A stretch of DNA of 64,000 nt from an uncultured delta proteobacterium (GTDB lineage: Bacteria > Desulfobacterota > Binatia > Binatales > Binataceae), in the NCBI GenBank assembly GCA_963743865.1, contig CAVURG010000006.1, positions 2,689,638-2,753,637 on the forward strand, read 5' to 3'. Positions 1,436-47,416 of this stretch are shown here, one piece after another. The notes beneath the pieces were generated by a model. It searched no databases. It worked only from the letters and a program-made list of their open reading frames with translations, and was not told the origin of the DNA. A program made the translations under genes and the position numbers. The first letter of the stretch is position 1; each line of letters starts with the position of its first letter.

Positions 1436-2704
1436 ATGTTAAGCGCGCTGTACAATTTGTTGTGGTATCCGGCGCTGCCGTTTGCGCTGCTGGCCGCGCA
1501 TCCGGCAAACCTGCGGGACTATCGCGAGCGGATGGGGCACGGCGATTTTCCGGATACCGCGGGCGCGCCGCGAATCTGGATTCATGCGGCCTCGGTCGGC
1601 GAGATCGAAGCGATTCGGCCGGTCGCCAACGGTCTGCTCGAACACTATCCGGGCGCGGTCATGGCAATCACCGCGATGACGGCGGCGGGACGTGAGGCGG
1701 CCAGGCGCCGAATCCCGGGTGCGGCGGCGTGGATGCTTGCGCCGCTGGACAATCGGCGCGCGGTGCGATCCTTTCTGGAGCGGGTGCAGCCGAGCGTGGT
1801 GCTGATCACCGAGACTGAAATCTGGCCGAACTACTTCATCGAATCCGCGCGGACGGGCGCGACGATCGCGGTGGTCAACGGCCGGATGTCGGAGCGATCG
1901 TTGCGTCGTTACCTGCGCGCGCGCGGCCTGTTTGAAGATGCGCTCGGCCAGGCAACCTTGATTCTGACGCAGAGCCGCGAAGACGCGCGGCGTTACGCGA
2001 AGTTCGATCTCGCGGCAAAAGTGGTAGTCACCGGCAACACCAAAATCGAAGCGGCGCAGGCGCAGATGGCGAATGAAGAACCAATTCGTCCTGAGCTGAT
2101 GGCGTTTGCACCCGGGCGGAAAATTTTTATCGCGGGATCGACGGCGGCCGGCGAGGACGCCGTGATTGCGGGCGCCTACCGCGAACTGCGCAAGGACTTT
2201 CCGCAGCTCGCGCTGACGATAGCGCCGCGTCATCTCGAGCGCACGCCGGAGATCGAAAAGGCGCTGCATGCGGCCTCGCTCGATTACGTGAAAGCGTCGG
2301 AACTCAATTCACCGGGCGCGGCGCGCGACGCGGACGTTTTGATCCTCGACACCATGGGCGAGCTGCGCAGCTTCTATCGGCGCGGATCGATCGCGTTCGT
2401 CGGCGGCAGCCTCGCGCCGGGACGCGGCGGGCAAAACCCGGCCGAGCCCGCGTTGGCCGAGGTCCCGGTCCTGATCGGTCCGTATCACGAGAACCAGCAG
2501 CAGATAGTGTCGTCGCTGGTCAGTTCCGGCGGCGCACGAATCGTCAAAAACGCGAGCGACATAATCAGCGAAACTTCGCAATGGCTCGCCGACGATGAGG
2601 CGCGACAACAGGCAGGCCAACGCGCGCGCGCTGCGGTGAGCCGTTCGTCGGGCGGCGCGCGGTTCGCCTTGAAGCAGCTCGAAGGGCTCATTAGTCTCGG
2701 CTGA
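1436..2704 (+). CDS. kdtA: 3-deoxy-D-manno-octulosonic acid (Kdo) transferase
   Basis: N-terminus MLSALYNLLWYP... and the IWIHAASVGE motif are typical of KdtA/WaaA. The ORF track starts at 1415; the internal Met at 1436 matches KdtA N-termini better. Confidence 0.8.
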   Translation: MLSALYNLLWYPALPFALLAAHPANLRDYRERMGHGDFPDTAGAPRIWIHAASVGEIEAIRPVANGLLEHYPGAVMAITAMTAAGREAARRRIPGAAAWMLAPLDNRRAVRSFLERVQPSVVLITETEIWPNYFIESARTGATIAVVNGRMSERSLRRYLRARGLFEDALGQATLILTQSREDARRYAKFDLAAKVVVTGNTKIEAAQAQMANEEPIRPELMAFAPGRKIFIAGSTAAGEDAVIAGAYRELRKDFPQLALTIAPRHLERTPEIEKALHAASLDYVKASELNSPGAARDADVLILDTMGELRSFYRRGSIAFVGGSLAPGRGGQNPAEPALAEVPVLIGPYHENQQQIVSSLVSSGGARIVKNASDIISETSQWLADDEARQQAGQRARAAVSRSSGGARFALKQLEGLISLG

Positions 2705-2707
2705 CCG

Positions 2708-3830
2708 ATGCCCTCAAACGAGCCGAGTCCGAATCGCCCACGAATCGAGCGATTGTGGCGGCGGGATCTTCCCGCTCCACTTCTTCCAATTTGGGCCGGG
2801 CTCGCGGTTGCGGCGGGATTCTACCGAGTCGGCGTGGCCGCACGTCATCTGTACTGGCGGATGATGAAACGGCGGGCGCCAGTGATGACGGTGAGCGTGG
2901 GCAATCTGACGGTCGGCGGAAACGGCAAGACGCCGTTCACGTTGTTTCTCGCCAAGCGCTTGCAGAGCCACGGCCTGCGCGTCGGAATCGTGAGCCGGGG
3001 CTACCGACGCGCGCGATCCAAAGTGCGCGCCGAGCTGGTGGCTGACGGCGGCACGTTGAAAATCTCAGCCGGAAGACGCGGGCGACGAGCCGGCGATGAT
3101 GGCGAAGTCGTTCGCCGGTCCGATTGCGGTTGCGCGCCGGCGCCTCGACGGCGTCGAGCTGCTAAGCAAGCTCGGTCCGCTCGACGCGGTGATCCTGGAC
3201 GACGGCTTTCAGCACGTGCGCTTGAATCGCGACGTGGATCTGGTGCTGGTGAGCAATGAGCGCGGCTTCGGCAACGGCTGGCTGCTGCCGGCCGGACCGA
3301 TGCGCGAGCCGATCCGCGCGGTCGGCCGCGCAGACGCGATTATAATGATGAACTTCGGAACTGCCGCGTCGGCAATTGGACCGTCGCAGATGAAGAAGCT
3401 TTCCGCGCGCAAAATACTTCACGCGTCGGTGCGGCCGCGCGCGTTGCTGGTCACCGAGAATGGGGTGTGGCGCGAAACCCCGCTGGGGCTGGGCGGACGG
3501 CGCGTGCTGGCGGTGAGCGGTCTGGCGGATTCAAGCGCGTTCTACGCGATGCTGCGCGAACTCGACGCGGACCTGGTCGGCGTTTTCGATTATCCGGACC
3601 ATCACGCCTACACGAACGCCGACTGGCAGGCTATGGTGAATGCGATGCGCGACACCGACCTGGTCGTCACGACCGAGAAGGACCTGGTCAAGCTGGAGCG
3701 GTTTCCGTTCCCGCGCGATTCGCTATACGCTCTCAGGCTTGAAGTAACGATGGATGCGGCCGATGCGCGCGCGCTCGACGAGTTGATACTGGGTCGCATG
3801 ACCGCAGCCTCGGCGGCGGCGGATGCATAG
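2708..3830 (+). CDS. lpxK: tetraacyldisaccharide 4'-kinase, broken by a +1 frameshift near 3060
   Basis: VGNLTVGGNGKTP P-loop in frame 2 (2708..3259). The rest of LpxK (DDGFQH, LLPAGPMREP) continues in frame 3 (3096..3830). The break is at ttgaaaatctca, an A4 run, so a homopolymer indel is likely. Confidence 0.75.
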
Positions 3831-3864
3831 CGAGAGGAAAGAAAATGCCCGGAGGATTTCCGCG

Positions 3865-4035
3865 ATGGCGCTGAGTCAGGAACTGCTCGACATCCTGGCG
3901 TGCCCGAAATGCAAGGGCGACCTGCATCTCAACGACAAGCAGGACGGCCTGGTCTGCAGCGCTTGCAGACTCGAGTATCCGGTGCGCGATGACATTCCGA
4001 TCATGCTGATCGAGGAAGCCAAACCGATCGCGTGA
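3865..4035 (+). CDS. Trm112/YcaR-like small protein (UPF0434)
   Basis: LDILACPKCKG...LVC..C motif. Classic position downstream of lpxK. Start taken at the internal Met of ORF 3823..4035. Confidence 0.6.
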   Translation: MALSQELLDILACPKCKGDLHLNDKQDGLVCSACRLEYPVRDDIPIMLIEEAKPIA

Positions 4036-4070
4036 CCGCCGCGCGGCGCGCGGCCAGCCTGCCTTCCGCG

Positions 4071-5263
4071 ATGAAAACGATCGACGCCACGCGCGCCCGC
4101 CAGTTCGCATGGCTCGCGATGGGCATCTACATCGTCGGGCTCGGCATCTCGGCAACGCTTCGGACGCAGGGCGACTTCAACGTTTACTATCGCGCGGGCC
4201 GTCGCGTGCTTCACGGCCTCGCGATCTATCCGCCGGCCGACTCCGATCGGTTTCTCTACGCGCCGATCTTTGCGATCGGGTTCGCGCCGCTCGCGGCGCT
4301 GCCACGCCATGTTGCGCAATTTGTTTTCTTCACGGTCAACGCATTCTCGCTGATCGAATTGATCCTCGGCGCGGGCGTGATTCTGTTCGGCCGCGAGCGC
4401 CGAATCCCGGCCGCGCTGATCGTTGTCCCGGTGTTGCTGTCATTCCGATTCATCGACAACAACATCGAGCACGGCCAGATAAATCTTCCGACCCTGGCGT
4501 TGATCGTGTGGGCGATCATTTACGCCGACGAGTCCCGCGACGGGTGGGCGGGCCTGATGCTTGCGGCGGCGATACTGATCAAGCCGTTCGCCCTGCTGGC
4601 CGCGCTACATCTTGCGATTCGCCGGCGCTTCGCCACGCTCGGATGGGCGCTGGCGGCGGGAATCGCGCTGATCGTCGTGCCAATCGTGATCTTTGGACCG
4701 CGCGGATGGATCGATCAGACCGGCGCATACCTGAACGCGATCGTTTCGATGACGAATCGATATCGCACGATGCTCACAAACCAGTCGGCCGTGTCGGCGG
4801 TCGCGCGCCTGATGAGTCTTCGCGGCGGGGCTGACGCGGAAACGTCGTTCGGCCGCCACGATTGCCGGAATGGGACTCGAGATAATGCTCGTCGCGGCAG
4901 TGTCGCTCTGGGACGCGATGAGCGATGAGCGCCGGACACTTCGCGAGGCGGCTGGCGCTGTGCGGCTTGTTCTGCCTGATGCCCTCGTTCGCGCCGATTT
5001 CGTGGAAAAGCTACTACGCGGCGATGCTCGTGCCATACATGGCTCTGACCGCGGCGCTGTGGACCGATCGAGACGGCGGCGAGCGCCCGTTGATTTCGGT
5101 GTGGACGCTGTTCGCGCTTTCCGTGTTGCTCAATCTTGCGACGGGAAACTATTTGAACCGCATCGCGCTCTTCTACTCGGCGCATTTCCTTTCATCGTTG
5201 CTCGCGCTTGCCGCCGTGTTCGCGTTGTGGCTTCAAAGCGGGAACGAGGCGCCCCAGGCGTGA
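4071..5263 (+). CDS. DUF2029/GT87-like polytopic membrane glycosyltransferase (GT-C fold), frameshifted near 4850-4925
   Basis: Multi-TM protein with a DUF2029-like N-terminal half (FNVYYRAG, LYAPIFAIGF, IKPFALLAALHL). The C-terminal TM segments continue in other frames (4870.. and 4925..5263). Confidence 0.5.
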
Positions 5264-5278
5264 GACCGCGTTGCGCAA

Positions 5279-6004
5279 ATGAAGTGGCGCTCCGATCCGA
5301 ACTTTTCGGCGTTCAAGATCGGCCGCCGAGAGCTCGTGATTCATCGCGATATCGCCCCTCACGCCGCGGAGATCGTGCAAAAGCTCGGCGAGCTTGCGTC
5401 CGCGTCGGAAGCGGGCGCGGGAAATCGCCAGAGCGCATTTCGGCTGAATCTCGCGGGCGGGCTCGAGCTGTTCGCGCGCCGGGGACGGCGTGGCGGAATG
5501 ATTGGATCGATCCTGAGCGACGTTTACGTGGGGATCACGCCGCGCCCGTTGAATGAACTCGCCGTGACGGTTGAAGCGATGCGGCGCGGAATCCCAGTGG
5601 CGGAGCCGATGGGCGCAATGATCGAATGGATCGGTCCCGCTCTCTATCGAGGATTTTTTCTGACTCGTGCGGTGCGCGGGATGACGCTATGGGAGTTCGT
5701 GAAGACGGACGACGATCCAATCGTTCGCCGCCACGTTCTCGGGCAGGCGCGCGCAGCGATCGACACGATGCACGACAAGGGGCTCTTTCACGCCGATCTC
5801 AATCTGCACAACATCCTGGTGACGCAAGCGCGCGAGAGTTTCACCGTGATTATTATCGACCTGGACAAGGCGCGGCTGTTCGATGGGCCGTTGCCGGCGG
5901 CGATGCGCCGGGCGAATGCGGCACGCTTGATACGGTCGGCGCGCAAGCTCGATCCGTCGGGGCAATATATCGACGCGTCCGCGCTGTCGATTCTGCAGGG
6001 GTGA
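5279..6004 (+). CDS. Kdo/WaaP-family lipopolysaccharide kinase (KdkA-like)
   Basis: FHADLNLHNILV catalytic motif and IIDLDKA; protein-kinase-like fold of PF06293. Confidence 0.65.
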   Translation: MKWRSDPNFSAFKIGRRELVIHRDIAPHAAEIVQKLGELASASEAGAGNRQSAFRLNLAGGLELFARRGRRGGMIGSILSDVYVGITPRPLNELAVTVEAMRRGIPVAEPMGAMIEWIGPALYRGFFLTRAVRGMTLWEFVKTDDDPIVRRHVLGQARAAIDTMHDKGLFHADLNLHNILVTQARESFTVIIIDLDKARLFDGPLPAAMRRANAARLIRSARKLDPSGQYIDASALSILQG

Positions 6005-6211
6005 CCGCGCGCGACAGAAGAATCACCTGCGCGGTGGGCGGCAGGGGCTGCGGCCCCTGCACCCGCAGTGACAAGACGTGAAAATCTGCGCAGCGCATCT
6101 TTTCGCGACTCCGCGATAAAAGAGCCAACGAGCGCGCGCGACAACGGAGCGCGGCCTTAACACTGGCTACCCGTGCCAACGGGCGGGCGCGCGATTCACT
6201 TTTTCACTTTT
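6005..6211. repeat. composite palindromic intergenic repeat, copy 1
   Basis: Contains GGCAGGGGCTGCGGCCCCTGCACCC hairpin, GAAAATCTGCGCAGCGCATCTTTTCGCGACT (about 90% identical to 44880-44930), GGCCTTAACACTGG, CCAACGG and the reverse complement of GTGAAAAGTGAAAAG. Confidence 0.7.
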
Positions 6212-6595
6212 TCAGTCGCGTTTGAGCGCGATCGCTTCGATCTCGATTCGCGCGTGGCGCGGCAGCGCCGCCACCTGCACGGTCGAGCGCGCCGGATAGG
6301 GCGGATCGAAATGCTCTGCGTACACACGGTTGACGATTTCAAACTCGGCGAGATCGATCATGAAGATGGTGGTCTTGACCACATCGACGAAATCCAGTCC
6401 CGCCGCCGCGAGCACTCCGCCGAGGTTCTGGAGCGCGCGCCGGGTCTCGAATTCGATCCCGCCTTCGACCAGAGCGCCCGACGCCGGGTCCAGACCGACC
6501 TGCCCCGAGCAGAAGACCAAGCCGTGTTGCTCGACCGCCTGCGAATAGGGACCGATCGCGGCCGGCGCCTGAGTGGTGTGAATCGAGGTTTTCAT
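6212..6595 (-). CDS. ridA: RidA family reactive enamine/imine deaminase (YjgF/L-PSP)
   Basis: 127 aa with TTQAPAAIGPYSQA N-terminus and ARSTVQVAALP C-terminal motif. Confidence 0.85.
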   Translation of the reverse strand: MKTSIHTTQAPAAIGPYSQAVEQHGLVFCSGQVGLDPASGALVEGGIEFETRRALQNLGGVLAAAGLDFVDVVKTTIFMIDLAEFEIVNRVYAEHFDPPYPARSTVQVAALPRHARIEIEAIALKRD

Positions 6596-6602
6596 TTTTT
6601 CA

Positions 6603-8817
6603 TCAATGGCGAATGCCGTTTTGCTGGCCGAGGCGCGACACGCGCATGACGCCGTCGATCGCGCCGATCGAGTTCATCAGGTTGTTCAATTGACGGGCGC
6701 TGGAGACGCTGACCTCGAAGACCGCCAGCGCGCGTCCGTCGGCGCCGTGAGTCTTCACTTCGGCGGTCGATATATTCACGCCCGCCGAGGCGATCGCCTT
6801 GGTCATCGCGGCGAGCAAGCCCGGCTGATCGGCGCATAGGACTTCGAGCCGAATCGGGCGCGGCGCTTCCTCGCCGTCCTTCCATACTACGGGCACGCGC
6901 CGATCCGGATCGGTGTTGAGCGCATGGGCGCATCCCGCGACGTGGACCGTAACCCCGCGTCCGCGCGTGATGAAGCCGGTGATCGCCTCGCCCGGGAGCG
7001 GATTGCAGCATCGCGCGAATCGCACCAGCATGTCGCCGACGCCCGAGACCACGACCGCACCGCTGGCGGATTTGCGCGCTTCCTTGGCGGCGCGTTCTCT
7101 TTGCGCGGGTCCCAGCGGCGTGGGTAATTTCTCGGGACGATAGAGTTTCAGCTCGGCGGGCGTCAGCAGTTTCGCGAGCAACTGCGCAGGCGTGATTATT
7201 CCGTAGCCGACCGCGGCGAGCAGGCTTTCGACGTCGCGCTGCGAGAATTCCGCCAGCACTGCGTCGAGACGCTTGCTCGATCTAAGCTGCGTGACGCTGA
7301 GCTTGACGGGTTCGAGCTCGCGATCGAGCAGCGATATTCCGAGATCGCGGGAGCGTTCCGCCTGTTGACTGCGCAGCCATTGACGGATGCGCGATTTCGC
7401 ACGCGCGGTGGCCGCGTAGTTGGTCCAATCCTTGCCCGGCACCTGCTTTTCGGAGGTCAGCACCTCGACCGTATCGCCCGATCGAAGCCGGTAGCGCAGC
7501 GGCACCATGCGTCCGTTGACGCGCGCGCCGGCGAGATGGTTGCCGACCTGGGAGTGGATTCGGTAGGCGAAGTCGATCACGGTCGAGCCGAGCGGAAAAT
7601 CGAAGACGTCGCCCTTGGGGGTGAAGACGAAGACTTCCTCGGGAAACAGATCGTCCTTGACGGTGGAGAGAAATTCCTGGGGGTCCTTGAGATTCTGCTG
7701 CCATTCGATCAGCCGCCGCAGCCATGCAAAGCGCTCGGTCTCCTTGAGCTCCCTGGAGTTGCCGTCCTTGTAGCTCCAGTGCGCCGCGATTCCTTCCTCG
7801 GCCACCTTGTGCATCTCGCGGGTACGAATCTGCACTTCCATCCGCTGGCCGCGCGGACCGATCACGGTGGTGTGCAGCGACTGGTACATGTTGGCCTTGG
7901 GCAGCGCGATGTAATCCTTGAAGCGGCCGGGGACCGGCTTCCAATTGGCGTGCACGACGCCGAGCGCCTCGTAACATTCGCGCACCGAGTCCACGATGAT
8001 GCGGAACGCGACCAGGTCGTAGATTTCCTCGAAGCTGAGCCCCATCTCCTGCATCTTGGAGTGAATCGAAAAGAAATGTTTGGGCCGGCCGGTGACCTCG
8101 GCCGTGACCCCGCTGTCGGACAGGCGGCGCGACAGGATCTCGATGACGTTGGCGATGTACTCCTCGCGCTCATTGCGTTTGGCCGCGACGAAGGCCTTCA
8201 GCGTCTGGTACGCAGTCGGATTCAGATAGCGAAACGACAGGTCCTCGAGCTCCGACTTGAGCCAGTAGATTCCGAGGCGATGAGCGATCGGCGCGTAAAT
8301 TTCCATCGTCTCGCGCGCGATCTCCTGCTGCCGGTCGGCGGCGAGATGGTCGAGCGTGCGCATATTGTGCAGACGGTCGGCGAGCTTGATCAGCACGACG
8401 CGGATGTCGTGGGCCATCGCGATGATCATCTTGCGGAAATTCTCGGCCTGCTTTTCCTCGCGGCTCTGGAAAGTGATCTTCGAGACCTTGGTCACGCCGT
8501 CGACGAGCTGCGCGACCTCGGCGCCGAAATCCGTCTGCACCTCCGCGAGCGACACGTCGCGTATCCTCGACGACGTCGTGCAGCAAGCCGGTGACGATCG
8601 AAGGCACGTCGAGCTTGAGCTGCGCGATGATCATCGCGACGTTGAGCGGATGCGTGACGTAGGGCTCGCCCGATTCGCGCTTCTGATCGAGATGCATCCG
8701 CGCCGAGTAGTCGTACGCGCGCCGGATCAGACCGATGTCGGCCTGCGGGTTGTAGGTTTGCACCCGCCCGATGAGGCCGGCGAGTTGGTCGGGAGTGCTT
8801 TGCGCTAACTCTTCCAC
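6603..8817 (-). CDS. bifunctional (p)ppGpp synthetase/hydrolase RelA/SpoT, frameshifted near 8555-8590
   Basis: N-terminal HD domain (HPLNVA..LLHDVVEDT) is in ORF 8170..8817. Synthetase, TGS and ACT domains are in ORF 6603..8555 (RIHSQVGNHLAGARVNGRMVPL, ACT at the end). Confidence 0.8.
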
Positions 8818-9449
8818 GGCGCGAATTCGCCGCGCAGGCGGCCGACCTTGAGCCGCTCCGCGTTTACGATCGTTTCGAGCCGCGCGACGGATTCATGAAG
8901 CTGGGCGTTGACTATCAGGTAGTCGTATTCGGGATAGGCCTGGGCTTCGTCGCGCGCTTTGCGAAGCCGGTGCTGAATCTTCGATTCTTCCTCGGTGGCG
9001 CGGCCGCGCAGACGCCCCTCGAGCTCGGCGAAGGTTGGTGGCAGAACGAAAATCGCGACCGCATCGCGGGGATACATTGCGCGAATCTGGCGAGCGCCCT
9101 GGATGTCGATGTCGAGCAGGATGTCGCGGCCCGAAGCGATCGCGGCGTCGAGCGGCGCGCGCGGCGTGCCGTAGGAGGATTCGAACACACGCGCCCATTC
9201 GGCGAGTTCGCCGGACGATTGCCTGCGTTTGAACTCTTGTTCGCTCACGAAGCTGTAGTCGATTCCGTCCGCCTCGCCTGCTCGCGGCGCGCGCGTGGTC
9301 AAGGATACCGAAAACTCCAGGCCCGCGATGGCCTTGAGCGACGCGCGCCAAATCGTGGTTTTGCCAGCCCCCGAAGGCGCCGAAAGGATAAAAATTATAC
9401 CGCGTCTCGGCGGCAAAGAATCACGTGATTTCAATGGTATAGAAGCCAT
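8805..9449 (-). CDS. gmk: guanylate kinase
   Basis: P-loop SAPSGAGKTT; conserved yicC-gmk-spoT order. Confidence 0.85.
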   Translation of the reverse strand: MASIPLKSRDSLPPRRGIIFILSAPSGAGKTTIWRASLKAIAGLEFSVSLTTRAPRAGEADGIDYSFVSEQEFKRRQSSGELAEWARVFESSYGTPRAPLDAAIASGRDILLDIDIQGARQIRAMYPRDAVAIFVLPPTFAELEGRLRGRATEEESKIQHRLRKARDEAQAYPEYDYLIVNAQLHESVARLETIVNAERLKVGRLRGEFAPWKS

Positions 9450-9481
9450 TAAGCGGGTGCAAAGGCCCCTTCTAGTATATC

Positions 9482-10358
9482 CTATTCGACGTTCTGGACC
9501 TGCTCGCGCATCTTTTCCGCCTCCGCCTTTACTTCAACCGTTACTTGAGAAAGGGCCGCGTTCTGCGACTTTGAACCCATCGTATTTACTTCGCGGTTGA
9601 TTTCCTGGAGCAGAAATTCAATCGACTTCCCGACCTGCCCCTTGCGCTTGAGCAGCGCCTTGAGGCCGTCGAGATGGGTGCGCAGACGCGTGATCTCTTC
9701 GCTGATATCGCCGTGCTGCGAGGCGGACGACGCCTCCTCGTAGAGGCGTTTCTCGTTGACCGGCAAGTCTGCCAGGAGTTCGCGAATCCGCTTGTGAAAA
9801 TTGTCCATTATTTCCGCGCGCGTCTGCTCGGCCAGCCGTTCAATTTTCGGGACCGCCGCTTCGATATTGCGAACCCGCGCGGCAAAATCGTTGTGCAGGC
9901 TGCGCCCTTCGCGCACCCGCTCGGCATCCAGCGCTTTCAACGCGCGAACCAAAGCCTTGTGGCCAAGCCTGAATGCCGCGCGCGAGTCGTGCTCCTCCTC
10001 GACGACGTGAAAAATTTCAGGCCGGTTGAGGATCGACCCGATGTCCGGATTGCCGTTGAGATGAAGCTGCTTGCCGAGACGGCGCAGTTCGGCGACGTAC
10101 AAATTCGCCAGCCGGTCGTTCACCTCGAGCCGCACCGGCGGAGGCTTCAGCGCAACCGACTTGATAAAAATTTCGACTCGTCCGCGCGCCACGACAGTTC
10201 TGTACGGCTTTGCGAATCTCGGCCTCATGCTCGCCCCATCCGCGCGGCACCGTCAGCTTGAGTTCGAAAAAGCGCTGGTTCAGCGCGCGCACTTCGGCAA
10301 TCACGCGAGTGCCGTCCTGCTCGGCGATAGCCCTGCCGAACCCGGTCATGCTTTTCAT
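9482..10358 (-). CDS. yicC: YicC family stress-induced protein, frameshifted near 10200
   Basis: N-terminus MKSMTGFGR in ORF 10017..10397. The DUF1732 C-terminal part, ending QVQNVE, is in ORF 9482..10228. Confidence 0.7.
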
Positions 10359-11549
10359 GTGACTCCGCCCCTCTCTTCCCGCGTTTTTCTCACACACGCG
10401 CGATAGAGCGCGAGCGTCCGCGCGGCCATCGTCGCCATCGAATAATTTTCCACGGCGCGCGCCCGCGCCGCCGCGCCCATCTGCGATCTCAGCGCGGGCG
10501 ATTCCGCCAGCCGGCCGATCGCCGACGCAATTGCTTCAGGATCCGCCGGCGGCACGATGATTCCGGTGCGATCGTGTTCGACCACTTCGCGAAGCCCGCC
10601 AACGTCGCTCGCTATCACCGGGAGCGCGCTCGCCATGGCTTCCAGAGCGGCTACGCCGAGCCCTTCCTTCAGCGACGGCATCGCGAAGGCGTCCGACGCC
10701 CACAGAAGTTCGCGCGGGTCGTCGATTCTGCCGAGCAGCTTGACGCTTTCAGCGCATCCCAGTTGCGCGATTTCGCGTTCGAGTTCTCCGCGAATCGATC
10801 CGTGACCCGCGATGAAGCATTTCAGCCTTGATCGGACGCCGCTGCCAGCGCGAGCCGCGCGACGCTTCGATGAGATAGCGATGGCCCTTGCGCGGCTCGA
10901 GCGCGCCAACCGCCGATATCACGAACTCGCCATCGGATATTCCGAGCGCGTCGCGCGCCTCGACGCGTTCGCTCAGGCAGTTGGCGGGCGGAAGCGGTCG
11001 CAATCCACGCCGCTCTGAACAACCGTGATGCGCTCGCGATCGACGCCCGCGGCCGCGAGCGAATCGGCAACGCCGCCGGAGATCGCGACCACGCCATCGA
11101 CCGCGCGATTGTACAGGTACGGCGCGAAAACGCGGTTGGGCCTGTAGTCCATCCGCCGCGTAACGACCAGCGCACGCGCGAAGCCGCGCGCAAACGGCGC
11201 CATCGAATGCGCGCGCGAGGTGTGGAAATGAACGACGTCATAGCGTTCACGTTTGAGAATCGCGCGCAGCCGGATGCCGGCCGCCAGGTCGATAGCGTTG
11301 CGGATGCGCAGCGGATGGCATCTTATGCCCGCGGCGACGGCCCGCTCCCAGAGCCGTCCCGCGGGATCGCAAATCAACTCCGCGCGATGACCGCCGCGCG
11401 GCCAGCGCGATCGTCAAGCCAAGCACCTGGGTCTCGCCGCCGGCGAAGCCGAGTTCGGGATCGACGCCGGCGATGCTCAGCGCCGGGCGCAACGGTGTTG
11501 CTATCGGGATGCACTGGATGGGGTCGTCAGGTTGAACAGTCGCATCCAT
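10355..11549 (-). CDS. GT4 (glycosyltransferase family 1-type) enzyme, at least three frameshifts
   Basis: N-terminus MDATVQPDDPI...GGETQVLGLTIALA (11549 downward), then 10973..11377 (RERYDVVHFH), 10749..11003, and a C-terminal EX7E-type region (KEGLGVAALEAMASALPVIASDVGG) in 10355..10909. Confidence 0.65.
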
Positions 11550-11557
11550 TGATCGCG

Positions 11558-12226
11558 TCAGTCGAAAAATCTGTAATACAGGATTGCGCAGACCGCGGTC
11601 AGCGCGTCGCGAATGCCGATCTTCTTGCCCTCTTCGTAGGTCCGTCCCGCGTACGACACCGGCACCTCGTAGATTCGCCATCGCGCGCGCGCCGCTTTGG
11701 CGGTGATCTCCGGCTCGAAGGTGAAGCGATTGGCGCTGAGCTTGAGCGTCATCAATTTCTCGCGCACGAACGCCTTCATCCCGGTCTCCATGTCGGTCAG
11801 ATTGAGATCGCTTACCATGTCGGAGAGCAGCGTCACCGCGCGGTTGGCCACGTAATGCCAGAAGAACATGACGCGATGCGGCCCGGAGAGGAAGCGCGAG
11901 CCGTAAACCATGTCGGCACGGCCGTCGAGCAGCGGGCCAATCATTGCGGCGTAGTCCCTGGGATCGTATTCGAGGTCGGCGTCCTGCACGAAGACGTAAG
12001 GATTTTTCGCCGCCGCAAAGCCGAGCCGGAGCGCGGCGCCTTTGCCGCGATTGACGGTGTGATAGAAACATTGAACGCGCGGATGGCTGAACTCGCGCAG
12101 AAACTCGGTAGTGCCGTCGGTCGAAGCGTCATCGACGACGATGACCTCGGGATCGAAGCCGCAATCCAGCACGCGCTCGATTACGCGGCCGATCGTCGTG
12201 ACTTCGTTGTACACCGGAATCACCAC
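11558..12226 (-). CDS. GT2 polyprenyl-phosphate glycosyltransferase (DPM1-like)
   Basis: VIPVYNE...VVDDASTDGT...DADLEYDP motifs; GTG start. Confidence 0.75.
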   Translation of the reverse strand: MVIPVYNEVTTIGRVIERVLDCGFDPEVIVVDDASTDGTTEFLREFSHPRVQCFYHTVNRGKGAALRLGFAAAKNPYVFVQDADLEYDPRDYAAMIGPLLDGRADMVYGSRFLSGPHRVMFFWHYVANRAVTLLSDMVSDLNLTDMETGMKAFVREKLMTLKLSANRFTFEPEITAKAARARWRIYEVPVSYAGRTYEEGKKIGIRDALTAVCAILYYRFFD

Positions 12227-13118
12227 GGAAATTTTGGTCCGCTCGGTCCATCAGCTTCCGCTCGCCTCCCGATGCGGCGCCACGGACGCCGATGCGCGGA
12301 CGGCGGCGGCGCGCCTTGCGCTCGTGCCGAATTCTGGCCGCGAGCATCGCGGCAACGCGGCGGCGTTGCGCGCGCCGGCGTCGCGCGGAAAACGCGGCGG
12401 CGTAGCCGCACCACACGCGCATCCGATCCGTATTGGTGACGCCGCCGAGCTCGAGCTGCCCGAGCTGAACGAGATTGCGCATCCGCGGCCGCTCGAAGCG
12501 GCTCAGAATCGTGCGCCGGGTGCGTTCATGATCGATGAAAACGAATTGCGGCGGCTCAAGTCCGGTGACGAAGATGTTGAACGGCGTCAGGTCGCCGTGG
12601 ATATATCCAGCGCGATGCAATCGCGCGACCTGCGCGCCGAGCGCGCGCAACACGACGCGCCTGGACGCGAGCTTCGCGCGCTTCAAATAGCGCGCAAGAT
12701 TAGACCCGGCGACGCGCGCGGTTACTATGATCTCGCGCCCGCCGCGGCGCTCGGCGCCGAGCAGCAGAATTTCCGGGACTCCGACGCCGTCGGCGCGCAG
12801 ATGCTCCGATATCGACGCAACGTGCGCGGCGCGCATCCGCTTGAATAACCACCTGATTCGATTCAGGCCACGGATCGGGTCGAGCACTTTGAAATAGGCG
12901 TTCGGACCCCCGACCTGATCGAAATTCTCGAACCATGTCTCGGCATGACGCGAGCGGCGTACGCGAGTCGCCAAGGCGCCGTCGATGGCGGCGAATGCGG
13001 AATCGATCAGGCTCTCGCGAAACGCCTCTGAAAATCGCGCGGCGTAGCCCGGGATGAAGAAGGTCCATCCGCCGCGCGTCAACGGCGCCCCGTCAAAGCC
13101 CGTCATTCGCCAGGTCAT
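12129..13118 (-). CDS. Kdo/WaaP-family LPS core kinase
   Basis: YIHGDLTPFNIFV and VFIDHER motifs. The Arg-rich tail overlapping the GT2 start may be a frame overrun. Confidence 0.55.
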   Translation of the reverse strand: MTWRMTGFDGAPLTRGGWTFFIPGYAARFSEAFRESLIDSAFAAIDGALATRVRRSRHAETWFENFDQVGGPNAYFKVLDPIRGLNRIRWLFKRMRAAHVASISEHLRADGVGVPEILLLGAERRGGREIIVTARVAGSNLARYLKRAKLASRRVVLRALGAQVARLHRAGYIHGDLTPFNIFVTGLEPPQFVFIDHERTRRTILSRFERPRMRNLVQLGQLELGGVTNTDRMRVWCGYAAAFSARRRRAQRRRVAAMLAARIRHERKARRRRPRIGVRGAASGGERKLMDRADQNFRGDSGVQRSHDDRPRNRARAGLRLRSRGHRRR

Positions 13119-14189
13119 CCGGCCGCTCCACGCATCGCGAGCGCGCGCCTCAGGTTGGCAGTGACTTCTTCGGGGGATATTCGCCGCATGCATTCGCGCC
13201 CGACGGGGCATTGACGAAGATAGCAGGGATGACACGGGATCGCGCCGCTGATTGCGAGCTCGGCGAAACCCCACGGCGCGGAGCGCTCGGCGGCGGTAGC
13301 GCCCCACAGCGATACGACCGGGCATCCCACCGCGGCCGCGATATGCATCGGGCCGGAGTCGGGTCCGAACGCGGCGGCGCATTGGGGAAAGATCGCGATC
13401 AGATCGCGCAGCGAGGTGCGTCCGGCCAGATTGAGCGCGGGGACGCCGTCGAGATGGCGCATGACCTCGGCCGGCGAGTTGGGTTTCGCCGGGACCGCCG
13501 AGCAACACGGGAAATCAGCCAGGGCTGCCGGCTCCGGGGCGCGCGAGCGTCCGAATTACCGCGGCGGTCGATTCAGGAAAGTAGATGCGGCTTGGCCACG
13601 ACGAGCCAAGGATCACGGCCAGGATCGGACGCGGCGCATCGCGCAGCATCTCCAACGCGCGGGCGCGTTCCGCGTCCGTCGCGGCGAGTCCGAATTCGAT
13701 CGGCGACTCCGCAATGCCGAGCGCGTCGCCGAACGCCTGGTATTGCAGGAGCTTCAGGCGCATGTTCGGCTGCGGCGCGATCCAATGATTCGAAAAGAGA
13801 TGGTTGAACTCCTTGGTGTTCGGCTTGGCGAAACCAAAACGAACCGCGGCGCCCGAGATTCGCGACGTGATGCCGCTTTTGAGATGACGCTGAAGGTCTA
13901 TCGCCAGATCGAAATGCCCCTTGCGAATTCGCCGCAGGAACCCAATGAACGTCAACGGCGCGTGCGTGCGATCGTACACGATCGCTTCGTCGAGCCATCG
14001 ATGGTGGTCGAGTACCCCGCTGGACTTGGGTTCCACCGCCCACGCGATGTGCGCGTCGGGCCATGCATTGCGGATGCGGCCGAGCAAAGGAAGCGCGCGC
14101 ACCACGTCGCCGATCGCGCCGAGCAGCACTATCAGCACCCGACGCGGGGGCGGCGCGATTTGCGTAGCGATGGCTTCAGGAGAGGACAT
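13115..14189 (-). CDS. GT9 ADP-heptose:LPS heptosyltransferase, frameshifted near 13470-13515
   Basis: N-terminus RVLIVLLGAIGDVV (13515..14189). C-terminus DSGPMHIAAAVGCPVVSLWG (13115..13462). Confidence 0.75.
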
Positions 14190-14204
14190 TTTGAGAAAGC
14201 TTGA

Positions 14205-14441
14205 TTATATGTGAAACCCACCGTGGGTTTGCAGGGGTGACCCCTGCACCCAGTGTTAAGGCCGCGCTCCGTTGTCGCGCGCGGCCCCTGCCAACGGCTT
14301 AATACTGCGCTGCCGTCGCCACGGCCAGGGGTGACCCCTGCACCCGGTAACGAATCGAAAAATCCGCGCGGCGCGTCTTTTTCTCTCGGGCGTAATACTG
14401 GCCAGCCGTGCGCCTAGTGAAAAGTGAGAAGAGAAGACGCG
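14205..14441. repeat. composite palindromic intergenic repeat, copy 2
   Basis: Modules: GTGAAACCCACCGTGGGTTT hairpin; CAGGGGTGACCCCTGCACCC twice; 14264-14297 is the exact reverse complement of 6129-6162; CGAAAAATCCGCGCGGCGCGTCTTTTTCTC; GTGAAAAGTGAAAAGAGAAGACGCG. Confidence 0.75.
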
Positions 14442-15657
<1,216 letters not shown>

Positions 15658-15680
15658 GGCTTGTATCGGGTCGTGTGCTT

Positions 15681-16181
15681 TCAGCGCGAGGAGCGAATCG
15701 GATTCACGACCGGGTCGATCTCCGGGACGATCGGTTGGCGTTTGTTGTAGTGGTAGTCCTTGCGCAGCGGATGACCCTCGAACGAATCGTACATCAGGAT
15801 GCGGCGCAGATCGGGATGGCCCTTGAAGACGATTCCGAACATGTCGAAGCATTCGCGCTCGAGCCAGTCGGCGGCGCCCCACACGCCAACGACGCTGTGG
15901 ACCCAGGGATCGGCGGCGTCCACGCCAATCTTGACGCGGATGCGATGGGCGAGGTTGAGCGAGTTCAGTTGATAGACGACATCGAAGCGCGGTTTGCGCT
16001 CGGGCCAATCGACGGCGGTCACGTCGGTCAGGAAATTGAAATCGAAGTCAGGCTCGTCGCGCAGCGCGCGGAAGAAATCATACGCGTGTTCGCGATCGAT
16101 GGTGAAAGTTTCCTCGTCGCGTGCGTTTTGCGCGTCGAGAATTTCCCCGCCAAAGCGTGCTTTCAGTTTTTCAATCAGCAT
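15681..16181 (-). CDS. nuoC: NADH-quinone oxidoreductase subunit C
   Basis: 166 aa with the typical NuoC/30-kDa-subunit motif ERECFDMFGIVFKGHPDLRRIL. Confidence 0.85.
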   Translation of the reverse strand: MLIEKLKARFGGEILDAQNARDEETFTIDREHAYDFFRALRDEPDFDFNFLTDVTAVDWPERKPRFDVVYQLNSLNLAHRIRVKIGVDAADPWVHSVVGVWGAADWLERECFDMFGIVFKGHPDLRRILMYDSFEGHPLRKDYHYNKRQPIVPEIDPVVNPIRSSR

Positions 16182-16190
16182 CGATCGCAG

Positions 16191-16547
16191 CTAGTCCCAA
16201 TCAAGCGCGCCGCGCTGCCAGGCGTAGAGCAGGCCGACGCAGAGAATCGCGATGAAGATCAGCGCCTCGACGAAGCCGAACATCCCCAGATAGCGCAGCT
16301 CGACCGCCCACGGATACAGAAAAATCACCTCGACGTCGAAGATCAGAAACAGGATCGCCGTCAGGTAAAAGCGCACCGAGAACCGCCCCCACGCCGAACC
16401 GCTCGGCGGGTTGCCGCATTCGAAAGCCTCGCTCTTGACCGCAGCACCGGCACGCTTGGGGCCGATCAGCATGTTGATCGTGCACATGACGCCGACGATC
16501 ACGCCGGCGACAAACAGGGTCACAGCCACGGGATACCAGGTTGTCAT
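16191..16547 (-). CDS. nuoA: NADH-quinone oxidoreductase subunit A
   Basis: 118 aa, three TM helices, FDVEVIFLYPWA motif. Confidence 0.85.
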   Translation of the reverse strand: MTTWYPVAVTLFVAGVIVGVMCTINMLIGPKRAGAAVKSEAFECGNPPSGSAWGRFSVRFYLTAILFLIFDVEVIFLYPWAVELRYLGMFGFVEALIFIAILCVGLLYAWQRGALDWD

Positions 16548-16706
16548 TCTCGAACCGCCTACAAGCGCTTCTTATTTTGATATCAATACCTGATGAGCGG
16601 GTGTTTTGGAACGACCGCCGATTTTTTTAGCAGGGGCGGCCGCCGTCGGCAAGCGCTACTGGGGCCATTAGACCCCCCCCCAACCCGTTTGTTATCATTA
16701 GCGCTA

Positions 16707-29979: not shown

Positions 29980-30300
29980 GTGAAGAAAAGCAGGATCGTC
30001 CTTTGCGGCCTCGCGCTGGCCGGTTGTCTGTGGGCTGGCTCGGCCAAGGCACAGGATCAACCACCAGCGTACATGAATCCAATTCCCAACGGTGGTTATA
30101 TGGTCACGCAACCCGGCGCGCGGCCCTACCAGCCACCGATCTACGTCAAGCCAATACCGAACGGCGGATACATGGTCACGCAACCCGGTGCTCAGCCATA
30201 TGAACCGCCCACGTATATCAGACCCATTCCCGGCGGCGCATTTCAGCCGGGTGTTCCTGGCAGGCGCACGTTTGATCTCCCCGAGGGCGGAGACCACTAA
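29980..30300 (+). CDS. small secreted protein with tandem P/G/Y-rich repeats (PIPNGGYMVTQPGA units)
   Basis: GTG start after GGGGAGG; signal peptide MKKSRIVLCGLALAGCLWAGSAKAQ; 72-bp DNA tandem repeat at 30061..30270 (about 2.9 copies). Confidence 0.6.
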   Translation: MKKSRIVLCGLALAGCLWAGSAKAQDQPPAYMNPIPNGGYMVTQPGARPYQPPIYVKPIPNGGYMVTQPGAQPYEPPTYIRPIPGGAFQPGVPGRRTFDLPEGGDH

Positions 30301-30315
30301 TCACCCGGTTCGACT

Positions 30316-30621
30316 ATGAGCATCCGCCATGCTGCCGCGCTTGCGGTTGTGGGCTGGTATCTGATGCTGGCGCCCAAAACGTTAGACACACCGCTTGCGT
30401 TTGACGAAAGCGCACCATTGAGCAAATGGAGCATCGTCGGCTCCTATGACTCGGCGAGTGATTGCAACGAGGGCAGGAACTATATTCCAAAGGGTTTGTT
30501 GCAACTAGCTAATGGTGAATCTGACGAGGGCAAGAAGAACCAGCTTACGCAGCAGGCGGTTAGCCTCGCAGGAGCTTACCTGTGCATCGCGACCGACGAT
30601 CCGCGCCTCAAGGGGAAGTAA
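30316..30621 (+). CDS. small protein A1 with N-terminal hydrophobic segment, two Cys and a C-terminal CIATDDPRLKGK motif
   Basis: 101 aa; paralog of 30851..31228 (shared RHAAALAxVGWYL N-terminus, W.I..SYD....C..R, LCIATDDPRLKG). Confidence 0.55.
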   Translation: MSIRHAAALAVVGWYLMLAPKTLDTPLAFDESAPLSKWSIVGSYDSASDCNEGRNYIPKGLLQLANGESDEGKKNQLTQQAVSLAGAYLCIATDDPRLKGK

Positions 30622-30623
30622 CG

Positions 30624-30854
30624 ATGGGAGACAAAATTAATTGCGTAGTCGTCAACAAACGACCGGTGGGGCCGCTGATATTCGGCGCAATAAAGGACGC
30701 TCTCTCGGACGCCAAAATCCGATTCACTCATGATTCTCTTGAGGATGCATTCCTGTTCTTCATCAGTGCCGATTACTTCCCGAAGGCGCGCGCAGTTTTC
30801 GACAAACTGAAGAACGATGGCAAAATTGATAATTTCGAGGTCAAGGAGAAGTGA
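30624..30854 (+). CDS. small cytoplasmic-type protein B (77 aa), unknown function
   Basis: Internal Met of ORF 30582..30854, placed 2 nt after the A1 stop, with a 4-nt overlap onto A2. Confidence 0.45.
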   Translation: MGDKINCVVVNKRPVGPLIFGAIKDALSDAKIRFTHDSLEDAFLFFISADYFPKARAVFDKLKNDGKIDNFEVKEK

Positions 30855-31228
30855 TCCCCCGTCATGCAGCCGCGCTCGCGCTTGTGGGCTGGTATCTGAT
30901 TGTGCCGCCGCGAGGGATCAAATCGAATGGGGTGCTGCTCCAGCCCGACATAAAGAGGCTGGAAGAAGCCATCCAGAACGGTACCGCTGAGGTAGCCCCC
31001 GATCCAACACAGCCTTACTCAGATTGGAAGATTATGTCGTCGTACGATACCGGGGGGCAGTGCGAGCAAGAGAGGAGCAAGTACCATAAGATTGCGACTT
31101 ACGCGAAGGAGAGGGAATATCGCGATGCGAAAGGCCAACCTCTCTCGGATCAGATCAAGATTTCTACCGAGCAATACGAGTTTGCGCTTTGCATCGCGAC
31201 CGACGATCCGCGCCTAAAAGGAGACTAA
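30851..31228 (+). CDS. small protein A2, paralog of A1
   Basis: 125 aa; same N-terminal segment and the C-terminal FALCIATDDPRLKGD. Confidence 0.55.
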   Translation: MIPRHAAALALVGWYLIVPPRGIKSNGVLLQPDIKRLEEAIQNGTAEVAPDPTQPYSDWKIMSSYDTGGQCEQERSKYHKIATYAKEREYRDAKGQPLSDQIKISTEQYEFALCIATDDPRLKGD

Positions 31229-31232
31229 TACC

Positions 31233-31460
31233 ATGGGAGCCTGTAAAATATGTGAAAGGCCGAAAGCGGATGTTTGCCTGCGTGATTACGATGGACCCGG
31301 GGAGGCGTACGCAGGCGGAAAGGCAACTGGTCCCGTCACTGGACAACTAGAAACCTGCGATGACTGCCACAAGGATATCGAGGATTCTTGCCGCCCAAAG
31401 CATAACACCGCCGCTAGCAAGAAAAACGACTTGCTTTTGACGCGTCCCGGTCGCCCTTAA
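31233..31460 (+). CDS. small Cys-rich protein (6 Cys: CKIC..C..CDDC..C), zinc-ribbon-like
   Basis: 75-aa ORF lying 4 nt after the A2 stop. Confidence 0.45.
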   Translation: MGACKICERPKADVCLRDYDGPGEAYAGGKATGPVTGQLETCDDCHKDIEDSCRPKHNTAASKKNDLLLTRPGRP

Positions 31461-31620
31461 CTAGGGCCGCCCGCCCCCGCCCCCGCCACCGCCTTCTCGT
31501 GCGCCATCATCTGACCCGATTGTCGCATCCAGCTCAGGCTAATATGGGGCCCCCGGCTCTTTCCCCCCTAACCCGTTCTAACAGGCCGTCAGGCCGCATC
31601 TATTCTTATTTCCTCGCTAA

Positions 31621-31756
31621 GGTGCAGGGGTTACCCCTGGCCGTGGCGACGGCAGCGCAGTATTAAGCAGTTGGCAGGGGCCGCGCCCGCCAACGGCGGG
31701 CGGCCTTAATACTGGGTGCAGAGGGGTCGCCCCTGCAAATCCACGGTGGGTTTCAC
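31621..31756. repeat. composite palindromic intergenic repeat, copy 3 (inverted relative to copy 2)
   Basis: About 90% identical to the reverse complement of 14221-14340, with compensatory stem changes (CCGCCCGCC AAC GGCGGGCGG). Ends CCACGGTGGGTTTCAC. Confidence 0.75.
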
Positions 31757-44714: not shown

Positions 44715-45035
44715 TGCGGAACCCACCGTGATTGAATGTGAAACCCTGCGCGGGTTTCACCCTTCCGCGGCAGGGCTGAGCCCTGCACCCGGTAACGAAT
44801 CGAAAAATCCGCGCGGCGCGTCTTTTTCTCCCGGGCGTAATACTGGCCAGCCGTGCCAACGGGCAGGGGCTGCGGCCCCTGCATCCGCATTGAGAAGACG
44901 CGAAAATCTGCGCAGCGCATCTTTTCGCGACTACGCGACGACAGGGGCGACCGCAGGGGCGACCTCCTTCGGCTTCGCTCAGGACGGGCTCTGCACCCAG
45001 TGAAAAGTGAAAAGAGAAGATGCGGGCTTCGCCCT
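44715..45035. repeat. composite palindromic intergenic repeat, copy 4
   Basis: GTGAAACCCTGCGCGGGTTTCAC hairpin; GGTAACGAATCGAAAAATCCGCGCGGCGCGTCTTTTTCTCCCGGGCGTAATACTGGCCAGCCGTG near-identical to 14345-14410; GGGCAGGGGCTGCGGCCCCTGCA module shared with copy 1; GTGAAAAGTGAAAAGAGAAGATGCG. Confidence 0.75.
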
Positions 45036-45214
45036 GTTAGAAGGGTAAGGGGGAAAAGGGGCTGCTGCCCGCCGGCACAGTAGTGATAATCAAGCCTCGA
45101 TGGCGCGCGGAGCCGGCCACCACGAATTGGTGGACTCTGCGCTGGAATCGACCGGCGCCGACACAATCTTCAGCGGTTGCGTCTGAGCGGTATGGCCGCG
45201 AAGCTCCACTTCTT

Positions 45215-46951: not shown

Positions 46952-47124
46952 GCCGGAATGAAGACGATGTTTCTAGAGACTATAAGTATTGTGCGCTGAG
47001 AAATCCCACCCGACCTGAAAGATGCGAAGGCACTGCTGGACGAATTGAACGAGGGCTAGATTTTCGCGGGCATCTCGAAGCGGGACATATCGATTCAGAT
47101 TGGCCTGCGTGACTGCGCGCGCCG

Positions 47125-47390: not shown

Positions 47391-47416
47391 GTTGGGAAGG
47401 CCGCGCGTAGGCTCCC

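Follow-up and report, generated by a model that had tools for sequence, protein, structure and literature searches.

What are the palindromic repeats that recur, five times in 64 kb, in the gaps between the genes of an uncultured member of the Binataceae, and how might they have come to be there? The DNA in question, hereafter the window, is the stretch of 64,000 nucleotides (nt) from 2,689,638 to 2,753,637 of contig CAVURG010000006.1 (assembly GCA_963743865.1). A preliminary description of the window had proposed that five intergenic blocks, which we call mosaics, are built from a small, unrecognized set of palindromic modules shuffled in either orientation, and that compensatory changes in their stems point to selection on structure, either as RNA or as DNA cruciforms. 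We find that the family is previously undescribed and confined to uncultured Binataceae of peat and soil, and that one of its modules is, by format, a bona fide GTAG-tagged repetitive extragenic palindromic (REP) sequence. We consider it somewhat likely that the family is a lineage-specific system of the REP type, the units of which are selfish, non-autonomous hairpin DNA, probably copied as folded single strands by an enzyme of the HUH type.

Results

Modules were sought in both orientations across the window, and expected numbers were taken from dinucleotide shuffles. The view that the five blocks form a modular, palindromic, intergenic repeat family is borne out by the long, nearly identical segments that they share and by the excess of their modules over the shuffles, and shuffling in either orientation is evident from the mixture of direct and reverse-complement matches among them. 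In direct orientation, 14326-14411 matches 44771-44856 (86 nt, 97% identity), 6040-6116 matches 44862-44938 (77 nt, 94%), and 14286-14331 matches 47334-47379 (46 nt, 98%); as reverse complements, 14211-14344 matches 31621-31756 (136 nt, 92%) and 6133-6166 matches 14250-14283 (34 nt, 100%). The last pair had been reported at 6129-6162 and 14264-14297; the exact match exists, but those coordinates were off by about 4-14 nt. Copies 3 and 4 also proved longer than first drawn, extending to about 31557-31756 and 44715-45054, respectively. Every module originally named exceeds its expectation: GAAAA(A)TCYGC..GCRTCTTTT and GCAGGG..CCCTGCAYCC each occur five times against 0.00 expected, TTAATACTG (with at most one mismatch) 11 times against 1.6, GCCAACGG 11 times against 3.5, GTGAAAAGTGAAAAGAGAAGACGCG twice against 0.00, and GTGAAACCC-N5-GGGTTTCAC twice against 0.01.

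An iterative similarity search of the window and 36 Binataceae loci delimited 75 mosaic regions that make up 12.6 of 351 kb (3.6% of the DNA), and k-mer assembly reduced them to about a dozen consensus modules. The central one, which we call the GA hairpin, unites two entries of the preliminary description, CGAAAAATCCGCGCGGCGCGTCTTTTTCTC and its relative GAAAATCTGCGCAGCGCATCTTTTC, and reads AAAA-GA-YGC...GCR-GA-TTTT on the opposite strand. It consists of an A/T-rich lower stem of 8 bp, tandem G·A in a 2x2 internal loop, an upper stem of 4 bp of G and C, and a terminal loop of 3-4 nt. There are at least eight subtypes, the commonest of which, type a (...ATCGC-GTAG-T-CGCGAAAAGATGCGCTGCGCAGATTTTCGCG-TCTTCTCACT), is a hairpin of 32 nt (8 + 4 bp, 2x2 internal loop, 3-nt loop). 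The tetranucleotide GTAG precedes it in 36 of 40 copies, with GGAG, GTGG, ATAG and ATGG as variants, when only copies at loci whose scan pattern did not include the tag are counted. The family has the sequence-level hallmarks of GTAG REPs, namely a small palindrome (20-40 bp) that folds into a stem-loop, an extragenic location and, in type a, the tag. The set of modules was rightly called unfamiliar in so far as no Rfam family matches it, but one member has a known format.

The GA hairpin rarely stands alone. In 187 of 219 instances (85%) a second hairpin, B, with the sequence GGGT-GCAGGGG-TCA-CCCCTGC (in general, GGGT-GCAGGGG-N3-CCCCTGC), lies 10-40 nt to its 3' side in the same sense. A locus holds two to four copies of B, and neighboring copies are mostly in tandem (147, as against 45 inverted) at a median spacing of 74 nt, with other modules in between; adjacent GA hairpins, by comparison, are tandem in 17 cases and inverted in 18 (17 with the tags inward, one outward). 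The tail of B leads into a junction motif, CAGTRTTAAG, which precedes many different modules. Among the other small palindromes interleaved with these are A, H1/H2 (which have CAGTRTTAAG arms), E, Cr and F/G, and a tandem G·A loop recurs in H1, so that two different modules carry one. In a larger pool of 1.19 Mb, which combines the window, the genome loci and metagenome loci (351 kb + 839 kb), we counted 331 copies of B and its variant B2, 217 of H1/H2, 186 of type a, 84 of E, 72 of Cr and 65 of A, together with 351 occurrences of the junction motif; because the loci were ascertained through the repeats, these counts are not genome frequencies.

The hairpins appear to be what is conserved. On both strands, whole blocks fold better than do their dinucleotide shuffles (z from -1.8 to -4.4), and the type-a hairpin is the predicted minimum-free-energy structure under RNA and DNA parameters alike (z ~ -3). 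When 24 distinct variants of the GA hairpin are aligned on its 12-pair helix, 85.6% of the cells form a standard pair and 7 of the 12 pairs have changed on both sides; the covariation score of 0.320 was equaled by none of 500 shuffles (0.146 ± 0.016) and exceeds anything obtained in slid registers (<=0.27), while the G·A columns are essentially invariant across subtypes. Because the rows were hand-picked among related copies, the test speaks for few lineages only, and it shows pairing maintained across a handful of lineages rather than many independent events. Module A comprises two subfamilies, TGCGG...CCGCA and TGTGA...TCACA, which are two fully compensated pairs apart and have few hybrids between them. 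Compensatory change is therefore found in two modules, as had been proposed, although the example first offered for it (CGCGCG.. against CCGCCCGCC AAC GGCGGGCGG, that is, H1 against H2) holds only in part: one pair is compensated, but the two other changed positions, by inspection, form a tandem GA/GA (TC/TC) mismatch in H1 and Watson-Crick pairs in H2. Constraint acts on the hairpin and not on the sequence, the stems being kept through two-sided changes while the GA/GA loop stays unvarying.

From compensation alone one cannot tell whether a structure is one of RNA or a hairpin of DNA, and here the position and orientation of the mosaics are informative. The genes bounding the gaps were assigned through Pfam and a codon-usage gene call; mosaics overlap called genes over 300 of 12,453 bp (2.4%), against a coding fraction of 80% overall, and they occupy 15 of 41 convergent gaps (37%), 43 of 216 tandem gaps (20%) and 7 of 40 divergent gaps (18%). 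The enrichment between convergent genes is one of several observations that would suit RNA structures selected by the host, whether as terminators, as stabilizers of 3' ends against exonucleases or as small RNAs. The compensatory stem changes would suit them as well, as would one subtype of the GA hairpin that has a C(UUCG)G-type loop and the one hint of strandedness that we have, namely that the GA-sense strand is more stable than its complement by ~3 kcal/mol under RNA but not DNA parameters. REPs elsewhere are reported as mRNA stabilizers (PMC3733652). Yet the modules show no preferred orientation with respect to transcription in co-directional gaps (14 sense and 17 antisense for the GA hairpin, 29 and 35 for B), and G·T mismatches are not favored over A·C on either strand (13 versus 22 in B, 2 versus 5 in type a). 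There are no canonical intrinsic terminators within the mosaics, and terminator counts are no higher than in shuffles; a single weak, 5-pair terminator-like site (14454-14437, minus strand) touches the edge of copy 2, and with no excess over shuffles to set beside it, we dropped the terminator hypothesis. Rfam gave no match at the gathering threshold in the whole window and chance-level matches only when the mosaics were searched at E<=1, the sole CRISPR-DR match scoring 20 bits (E 0.33) against a gathering score of 39. Moreover, the content of a gap differs at the same gene pair between relatives that are 92-95% identical, which is hard to square with a tuned regulatory RNA. We therefore regard host-selected RNA as an unlikely explanation. 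Taken together, the lack of orientation bias, of a G·U excess, of terminators and of Rfam matches speaks for a constrained hairpin, one able to form from DNA or to function either way round, rather than for a strand-specific RNA gene; of the two levels of selection first proposed, that of RNA is not backed. All five GA hairpins of the window lie on one strand, and a replication-strand bias was considered and dropped since orientations are mixed along long contigs of metagenome-assembled genomes (MAGs).

The content of the gaps turns over. Paralogous copies inside the window are 97-100% identical, compared with 92-95% for orthologous flanks, and this indicates recent copying or homogenization. 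In 132 syntenic pairs of loci (designated L and a number) there are 59 indels of at least 40 nt; 33 touch a module, 21 with modules on both alleles, although no more than 3.6% of the DNA in the genome-locus set is mosaic. We read the junctions of three at the level of modules: in L062/L175 and L090/L216 whole B-bounded segments are present or absent, in L093/L203 the indel lies between GGGCGG microhomologies, and at none of the three is there a target-site duplication. The five gaps of the window, when compared, are occupied in every alignable relative, so the sites seem long-lived while what they hold is exchanged. A gap once colonized stays a nest, the content of which is reshuffled by the gain and loss of B-bounded segments.

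Turnover of this kind might be ascribed to recombination and nothing else. In such a scheme, comparable to the intergenic mosaic elements of Neisseria (NIMEs), B and/or CAGTRTTAAG would serve as a site-specific or homologous site at which cassettes are swapped and duplicated, and no dedicated transposase would be involved. The tandem arrangement of neighboring B hairpins, with modules between them, is what one would hope to see, and so are indels that begin and end in copies of B or in microhomology without target duplications, and a junction motif placed before many modules. Left unexplained are the spread of the family to many separate gaps (about five per 64 kb, the density of mosaics in the window) and the conservation of the GTAG tag and the G·A loop. 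Tags of the GTAG type and G·A loops are read by HUH enzymes in known systems. Nor did we see a recombinase gene beside the mosaics, though no systematic search was made. On balance, recombination by itself strikes us as a rather unlikely account.

A different origin would make the modules classical MITEs (miniature transposable elements with inverted repeats), that is, deletion derivatives of insertion sequences (ISs) with a DDE transposase, moved by cut-and-paste through terminal inverted repeats (TIRs). The H1/H2 modules with Cr are indeed bracketed by 10-nt inverted arms, CAGTATTAAG...CTTAATACTG, and the same genomes hold a true MITE with TIRs of ~20 nt and a TTA duplication in one filled/empty pair. 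In the mosaics, however, the modules lack target-site duplications, the arms also occur independently and beside many different partners, the units are hairpins of 20-60 nt and not elements of 100-300 nt with TIRs at their ends, and B forms the boundaries of the indels. A MITE origin for the mosaics is, in our estimation, very unlikely.

The true MITE merits description in its own right. It adjoins copy 5 at 47410-47604 (~190 nt), has TIRs of ~20 nt (CCCAGCAGGCTGTTGAAAAAG ... TTTTTCAACACCCTGCTGGG), and is missing from the orthologous site of metagenome contig L228, the flank of which is 95.5% identical. Relatives of it occur in L028 (97%), L091, L223 and L153, and a sister copy in L177 (7639-7769), when compared with the empty site in L146, is flanked by the duplicated TTA. 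These features suggest a DDE-type MITE, possibly IS5-like, of a class distinct from the hairpin mosaics.

The hosts of the family were sought with a degenerate pattern of one hairpin in one genome per species, a scan whose taxonomic range is not exhaustive, and with an exact 36-nt match to the commonest module in metagenomes. Among the matches listed, the genome scan found dense clusters of modules in MAGs of Candidatus Binatus and Binataceae and scattered single chance matches elsewhere. The modules are present in at least six Binataceae (phylum Binatota) species genomes and in at least 120 contig stretches from peat and bog metagenomes, and no locus clearly outside Binatia carries any of them, again among the matches listed. 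An earlier guess from GC content, that these were repeats of a Burkholderia type, was rejected when the genome scan placed them in Binataceae MAGs. The exceptions are exceptions of labeling: L040 and L045 (CALAOW01, an "uncultured proteobacterium" MAG) and L007 (IMGVR_UViG_3300014165_000192, filed as viral) carry several Binataceae modules (B, H1, E, Rd and Ra) and are probably mislabeled or misbinned Binataceae DNA. Apart from L007, a scan of a viral collection gave chance matches only. In the literature that we searched there is no paper linking Binatia with REPs, with REPINs (REP doublets forming one hairpin) or with MITEs.

Repeats of this sort invite the suspicion that they are artefacts of assembly or adapter sequence, and many short-read contigs do end at a repeat or within ~50 nt of one; that pattern, however, shows only that repeats break assemblies. 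An independent MAG, MFD00991.bin.1.136, has a contig, CAWFAJ010000018.1, that is collinear with the window and 92-95% identical to it (L042 and L049 cover 1698-16629), and both gaps orthologous to those of copies 1 and 2 hold mosaics there, of other length and module content. Likewise L226, L182 and L228 align with one flank of copies 2, 4 and 5, and each has a mosaic of different content there. Absence from independent assemblies, which had been named in advance as grounds for discarding the family, is thus excluded. The contigs of that MAG are 59-686 kb long; mosaics are found in several species and many samples, and they lie internal to contigs and are flanked by intact genes. An artefact is so improbable that we consider it no further. 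Contigs that start or end within ~50 nt of a type-a repeat are a common sight among L126-L245 (e.g., L126, L132, L138, L147, L148 and L172), and much of the breakage of contigs in Binataceae assemblies is evidently due to the repeats.

Arrangement of the Five Mosaics

The intergenic placement originally claimed for the blocks, including a restriction-modification segment bracketed by copies 4 and 5, is upheld by the gene calls. Copy 1 (6005-6211) fills the space between a convergent pair, an LPS-kinase gene (5279-6004, plus strand) and a RidA gene (6212-6595, minus strand). It contains module E (CGCCCACCGCGCAGGTGATTCTTC...; 6017-6040, minus strand), which matches over 24 of 24 nt and is also present at 47279-47309 on the plus strand, and then B2 (GGCAGGGGCTGCGGCCCCTGCACCCGC; 6040-6066, plus strand), a variant of B with a long stem. 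The type-a REP that follows (hairpin CGCGAAAAGATGCGCTGCGCAGATTTTCACG; 6067-6117, sense strand minus) has a degenerate tag, GGAG at 6109-6112 instead of GTAG. Module H1 with its junction arm (CAGTGTTAAG and the GGCCGCGC..GCGCGGCC hairpin) occupies 6133-6166 on the minus strand and is the exact reverse complement of 14250-14283.

Copy 2 (14205-14441) lies between a NuoD-like gene (stop at 14442, minus strand) and a GT9 gene (start at 14189, minus strand). It contains hairpin A (GTGAAACCCACCGTGGGTTT; 14211-14230), truncated at its 3' end by hairpin B (GCAGGGGTGACCCCTGC with the tail ACCCA; 14231-14252, plus strand). On the same strand come H1 (14251-14286), which joins the junction CAGTGTTAAG to a hairpin with a TC/TC internal loop, then Cr (CCCTGCCAACGGCTTAATACTGCGCTGCCGTCGCCACGGCCAGGGG; 14286-14331) and a second B in tandem with the first (14326-14345). 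A type-b GA hairpin unit at 14346-14411 (core 14357-14381), with its sense strand minus, is 97% identical to 44791-44856, and module F (GTGAAAAGTGAGAAGAGAAGACGCG; 14417-14441, plus strand) completes the block.

Copy 3 (31557-31756) is immediately 5' of an ADH gene that starts at 31771. Read from left to right on the plus strand it holds G2 (31560-31601), B, Cr, H2, B and a partial A, and its oriented modules are all on the minus strand. Copy 4 (44715-45054) separates convergent genes for a sulfatase (stop at 44708, plus strand) and a DNA methylase (stop at 45215, minus strand), and is made up of A (44738-44760), B (44769-44790), Rb (44791-44862), B2 (44862-44888), a type-a REP (44891-44938), an interrupted B, and F with G (45000-45054). 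Its REP is on the minus strand with an intact tag, GTAG at 44931-44934, and the hairpin at 44898-44929. Copy 5 (47125-47390), on the far side of the restriction-modification segment, contains two B hairpins (47128-47171), a type-c GA hairpin unit (47172-47234; core 47181-47205), E (47279-47309), a partial H2, and Cr (47334-47379).

The GC content of the methylase segment and of the stretch before copy 3 is 53-57%, against 63% for the window overall. The former (45215-47100, 53-57% GC), which copies 4 and 5 bracket, encodes an N6_N4 DNA methylase (45215-46210, minus strand) and an open reading frame (ORF) of 182 aa (46173-46721, minus strand). Contig L182 is collinear with the window up to 45191 and then diverges, so that 45215-47100 looks like a restriction-modification island inserted between mosaics. 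The latter (30500-31500, 54-55% GC), directly 5' of copy 3, has small ORFs at 30624-30854 and 30851-31228; a 58-nt segment, 83% identical, is common to ORFs 30316-30621 and 30851-31228. Coding regions contain repeats of their own, apart from the mosaics: four units ~165 nt apart (56466-57000) inside a 654-aa ORF (55211-57175), a tandem 72-nt repeat (30058-30201), and two paralogous segments ~500 nt apart (62864-63591).

Discussion

The combination of tag, invariant mismatch and lack of target duplications leads us to infer handling of the HUH type, and we suspect that the family works as follows. The core unit is the GTAG-tagged, REP-type hairpin with its tandem G·A loop, followed on the 3' side by B in the same sense. 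Such units may be selfish, non-autonomous DNA, folded single strands of which are copied by an HUH/Y1 transposase acting in trans; a REP-associated tyrosine transposase (RAYT) or a relative of the IS200/IS605 enzymes is a plausible candidate and would read the hairpin, the G·A loop and the 5' tetranucleotide. The units persist only in gene-free gaps, a pattern that the gene calls document, and the content of a gap would then be reshuffled by recombination or slippage between B hairpins or junction motifs, along with further insertions. Any benefit to the host, such as the protection of 3' mRNA ends, would presumably be secondary.

Several observations count against a REP-type system of this description. 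GTAG is carried by type a only, types b-d being without it; adjacent REPs are in tandem as often as inverted, unlike those of classical REPINs and BIMEs (bacterial interspersed mosaic elements). A clean pair of filled and empty sites was not found for any one unit, which leaves transposition a hypothesis, and all of the observed indels can be explained by recombination alone. Finally, no RAYT or HUH gene was found in the 1.19 Mb of Binataceae-type sequence sampled near the repeats. RAYT-type genes, which typically have their REPs on either side, are usually single-copy, about one per genome, and since our sample is spread over many genomes (fewer than one such gene expected), this negative is a weak one. 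The search comprised tblastn with one E. coli RAYT, a motif screen for HxH...YxxxNP, and inspection of indels of 1-1.3 kb and of REP-flanked ORFs. The query was the E. coli TnpA-REP, a sequence 100% identical to PDB 4ER8, which itself matched no Pfam family; REP/RAYT systems are the subject of Nunvar 2010 (PMC2817692), with 4ER8 as a structure. Its matches were at chance level, the best (in L203) being antisense to an ABC-ATPase gene, and the motif screen returned one match, which was spurious. Judged by eye from their translations, the larger indels hold an HNH-motif ORF, a zinc-peptidase (HExxH) ORF, a methyltransferase-like ORF and a 452-aa ORF, with no transposase among them, and the REP-flanked ORFs look like ordinary genes or low-coding stretches. 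One insertion of 1.1 kb, at 5671-6770 of L120 relative to the syntenic L074, contains two ORFs, one of them for a protein with an HNH motif, and has a direct repeat of 22 nt, GGCCCCTGCACGGGGCTGAGGC, at its flanks.

These points leave some room for another reading, possible if doubtful, according to which the family is no RAYT/REP system at all but a bipartite element of Binatota, made of the GTAG hairpin with its G·A loop and the GGGT-tagged B, and served by some other enzyme, with cassette arrays of an undescribed kind built by recombination. That enzyme could, for example, belong to an unrecognized family of HUH proteins or recombinases for which B marks the edge of a cassette.

With the REP-type system as our preferred reading, the family opens no new mechanism; it is of the known REP/BIME/NIME kind. 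Its interest lies elsewhere. It extends GTAG-tagged REP elements to the uncultured Binatota, for which the literature searched records no repeat family, and its well-defined hairpin, with an invariant tandem G·A and covarying stems, allows a search for the cognate protein. The repeats are the chief source of structural differences between close Binataceae genomes. Their consensus should aid MAG assembly, strain typing and annotation, in which they should be annotated neither as genes nor as small RNAs.

Comparison with Known Systems

The resemblance to BIMEs and REPs noted at the outset is borne out, in that the family consists of modular palindromic mosaics in intergenic gaps; how far it goes is best judged by working inward from more distant systems. 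The mosaics are not CRISPR arrays: their spacing is irregular, what look like spacers are modules that recur in their turn, and a locus has only two to four copies of B. Nor do they answer to the definition of a DDE-type MITE, given that no duplications were seen at the junctions read, although the neighboring element at 47410-47604 does. A closer likeness is to the palindrome-associated elements derived from IS200/IS605, which have sub-terminal hairpins and a 5' guide tetranucleotide and make no target duplication. The Binataceae unit is similarly bounded by two sub-terminal hairpins with 4-nt 5' extensions (GTAG and GGGT), and it too lacks target-site duplications and terminal inverted repeats; it differs in that its two hairpins are mutually unrelated, and neither tnpA nor tnpB was found.

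In the NIMEs of N. meningitidis, RS modules are punctuated by dRS3 repeats. The Binataceae arrays share with them a short palindrome of 20 nt that separates a few longer repeated modules, and a variability between strains that resembles the product of recombination. The dRS3 repeats of Neisseria are CGTC-1 REPs (PMC3733652), whereas B has neither a CGTC tag nor the ATTCCC-N8-GGGAAT sequence that defines them; the Binataceae arrays are also short (2-4 copies of B), and we saw no link to a phage or an integrase. With REPINs (Bertels and Rainey 2011; PMC3116915, PMC3337134) the family has in common populations of nearly identical hairpin repeats, variants that resemble a quasi-species, and vertical inheritance within a lineage. 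A REPIN, however, is two inverted REPs that form one long hairpin, and in Binataceae only 18 of 35 pairs are inverted, with the tags inward in 17 and outward in 1; the predominant unit is instead a REP and B in tandem, in the same sense. The BIMEs of E. coli and other enterobacteria are likewise intergenic mosaics in which REP hairpins are combined with other conserved motifs, and at a given locus one strain may differ from another in the number and choice of units. According to PMC2817692, the REPs of BIMEs alternate in orientation at regular spacing. The Binataceae hairpins do not follow that rule (17 tandem and 18 inverted for the GA hairpin, 147 and 45 for B), and their repertoire, at ~12 modules, is larger.

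The nearest relatives would seem to be the GTAG-tagged REPs of Di Nocera et al. 2013 (PMC3733652). Like them, the type-a hairpin is short, palindromic and extragenic, and its 5' GTAG tag, present in ~90% of copies, is unpaired; there are subfamilies with complementary stem changes and several families in one genome; and most of the elements have co-directional or convergent genes on their two sides (43 tandem, 15 convergent and 7 divergent gaps). In P. aeruginosa the stems of GTAG-24 REPs are long and include an unpaired GA (PMC3733652), and the Binataceae stem is also long and interrupted in the same manner. The differences are nonetheless considerable. The stem has an unrelated sequence, and the host phylum, Binatota, is new; the tag stands one base away from the stem (GTAG-T-CGCG); subtypes b-d are without GTAG, and no RAYT was found in the 1.19 Mb; and the REP is coupled to an unrelated second hairpin, B, in the same sense (187/219). 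It is this coupling, together with tandem G·A loops in two modules and a rich repertoire, that makes the Binataceae family distinctive.

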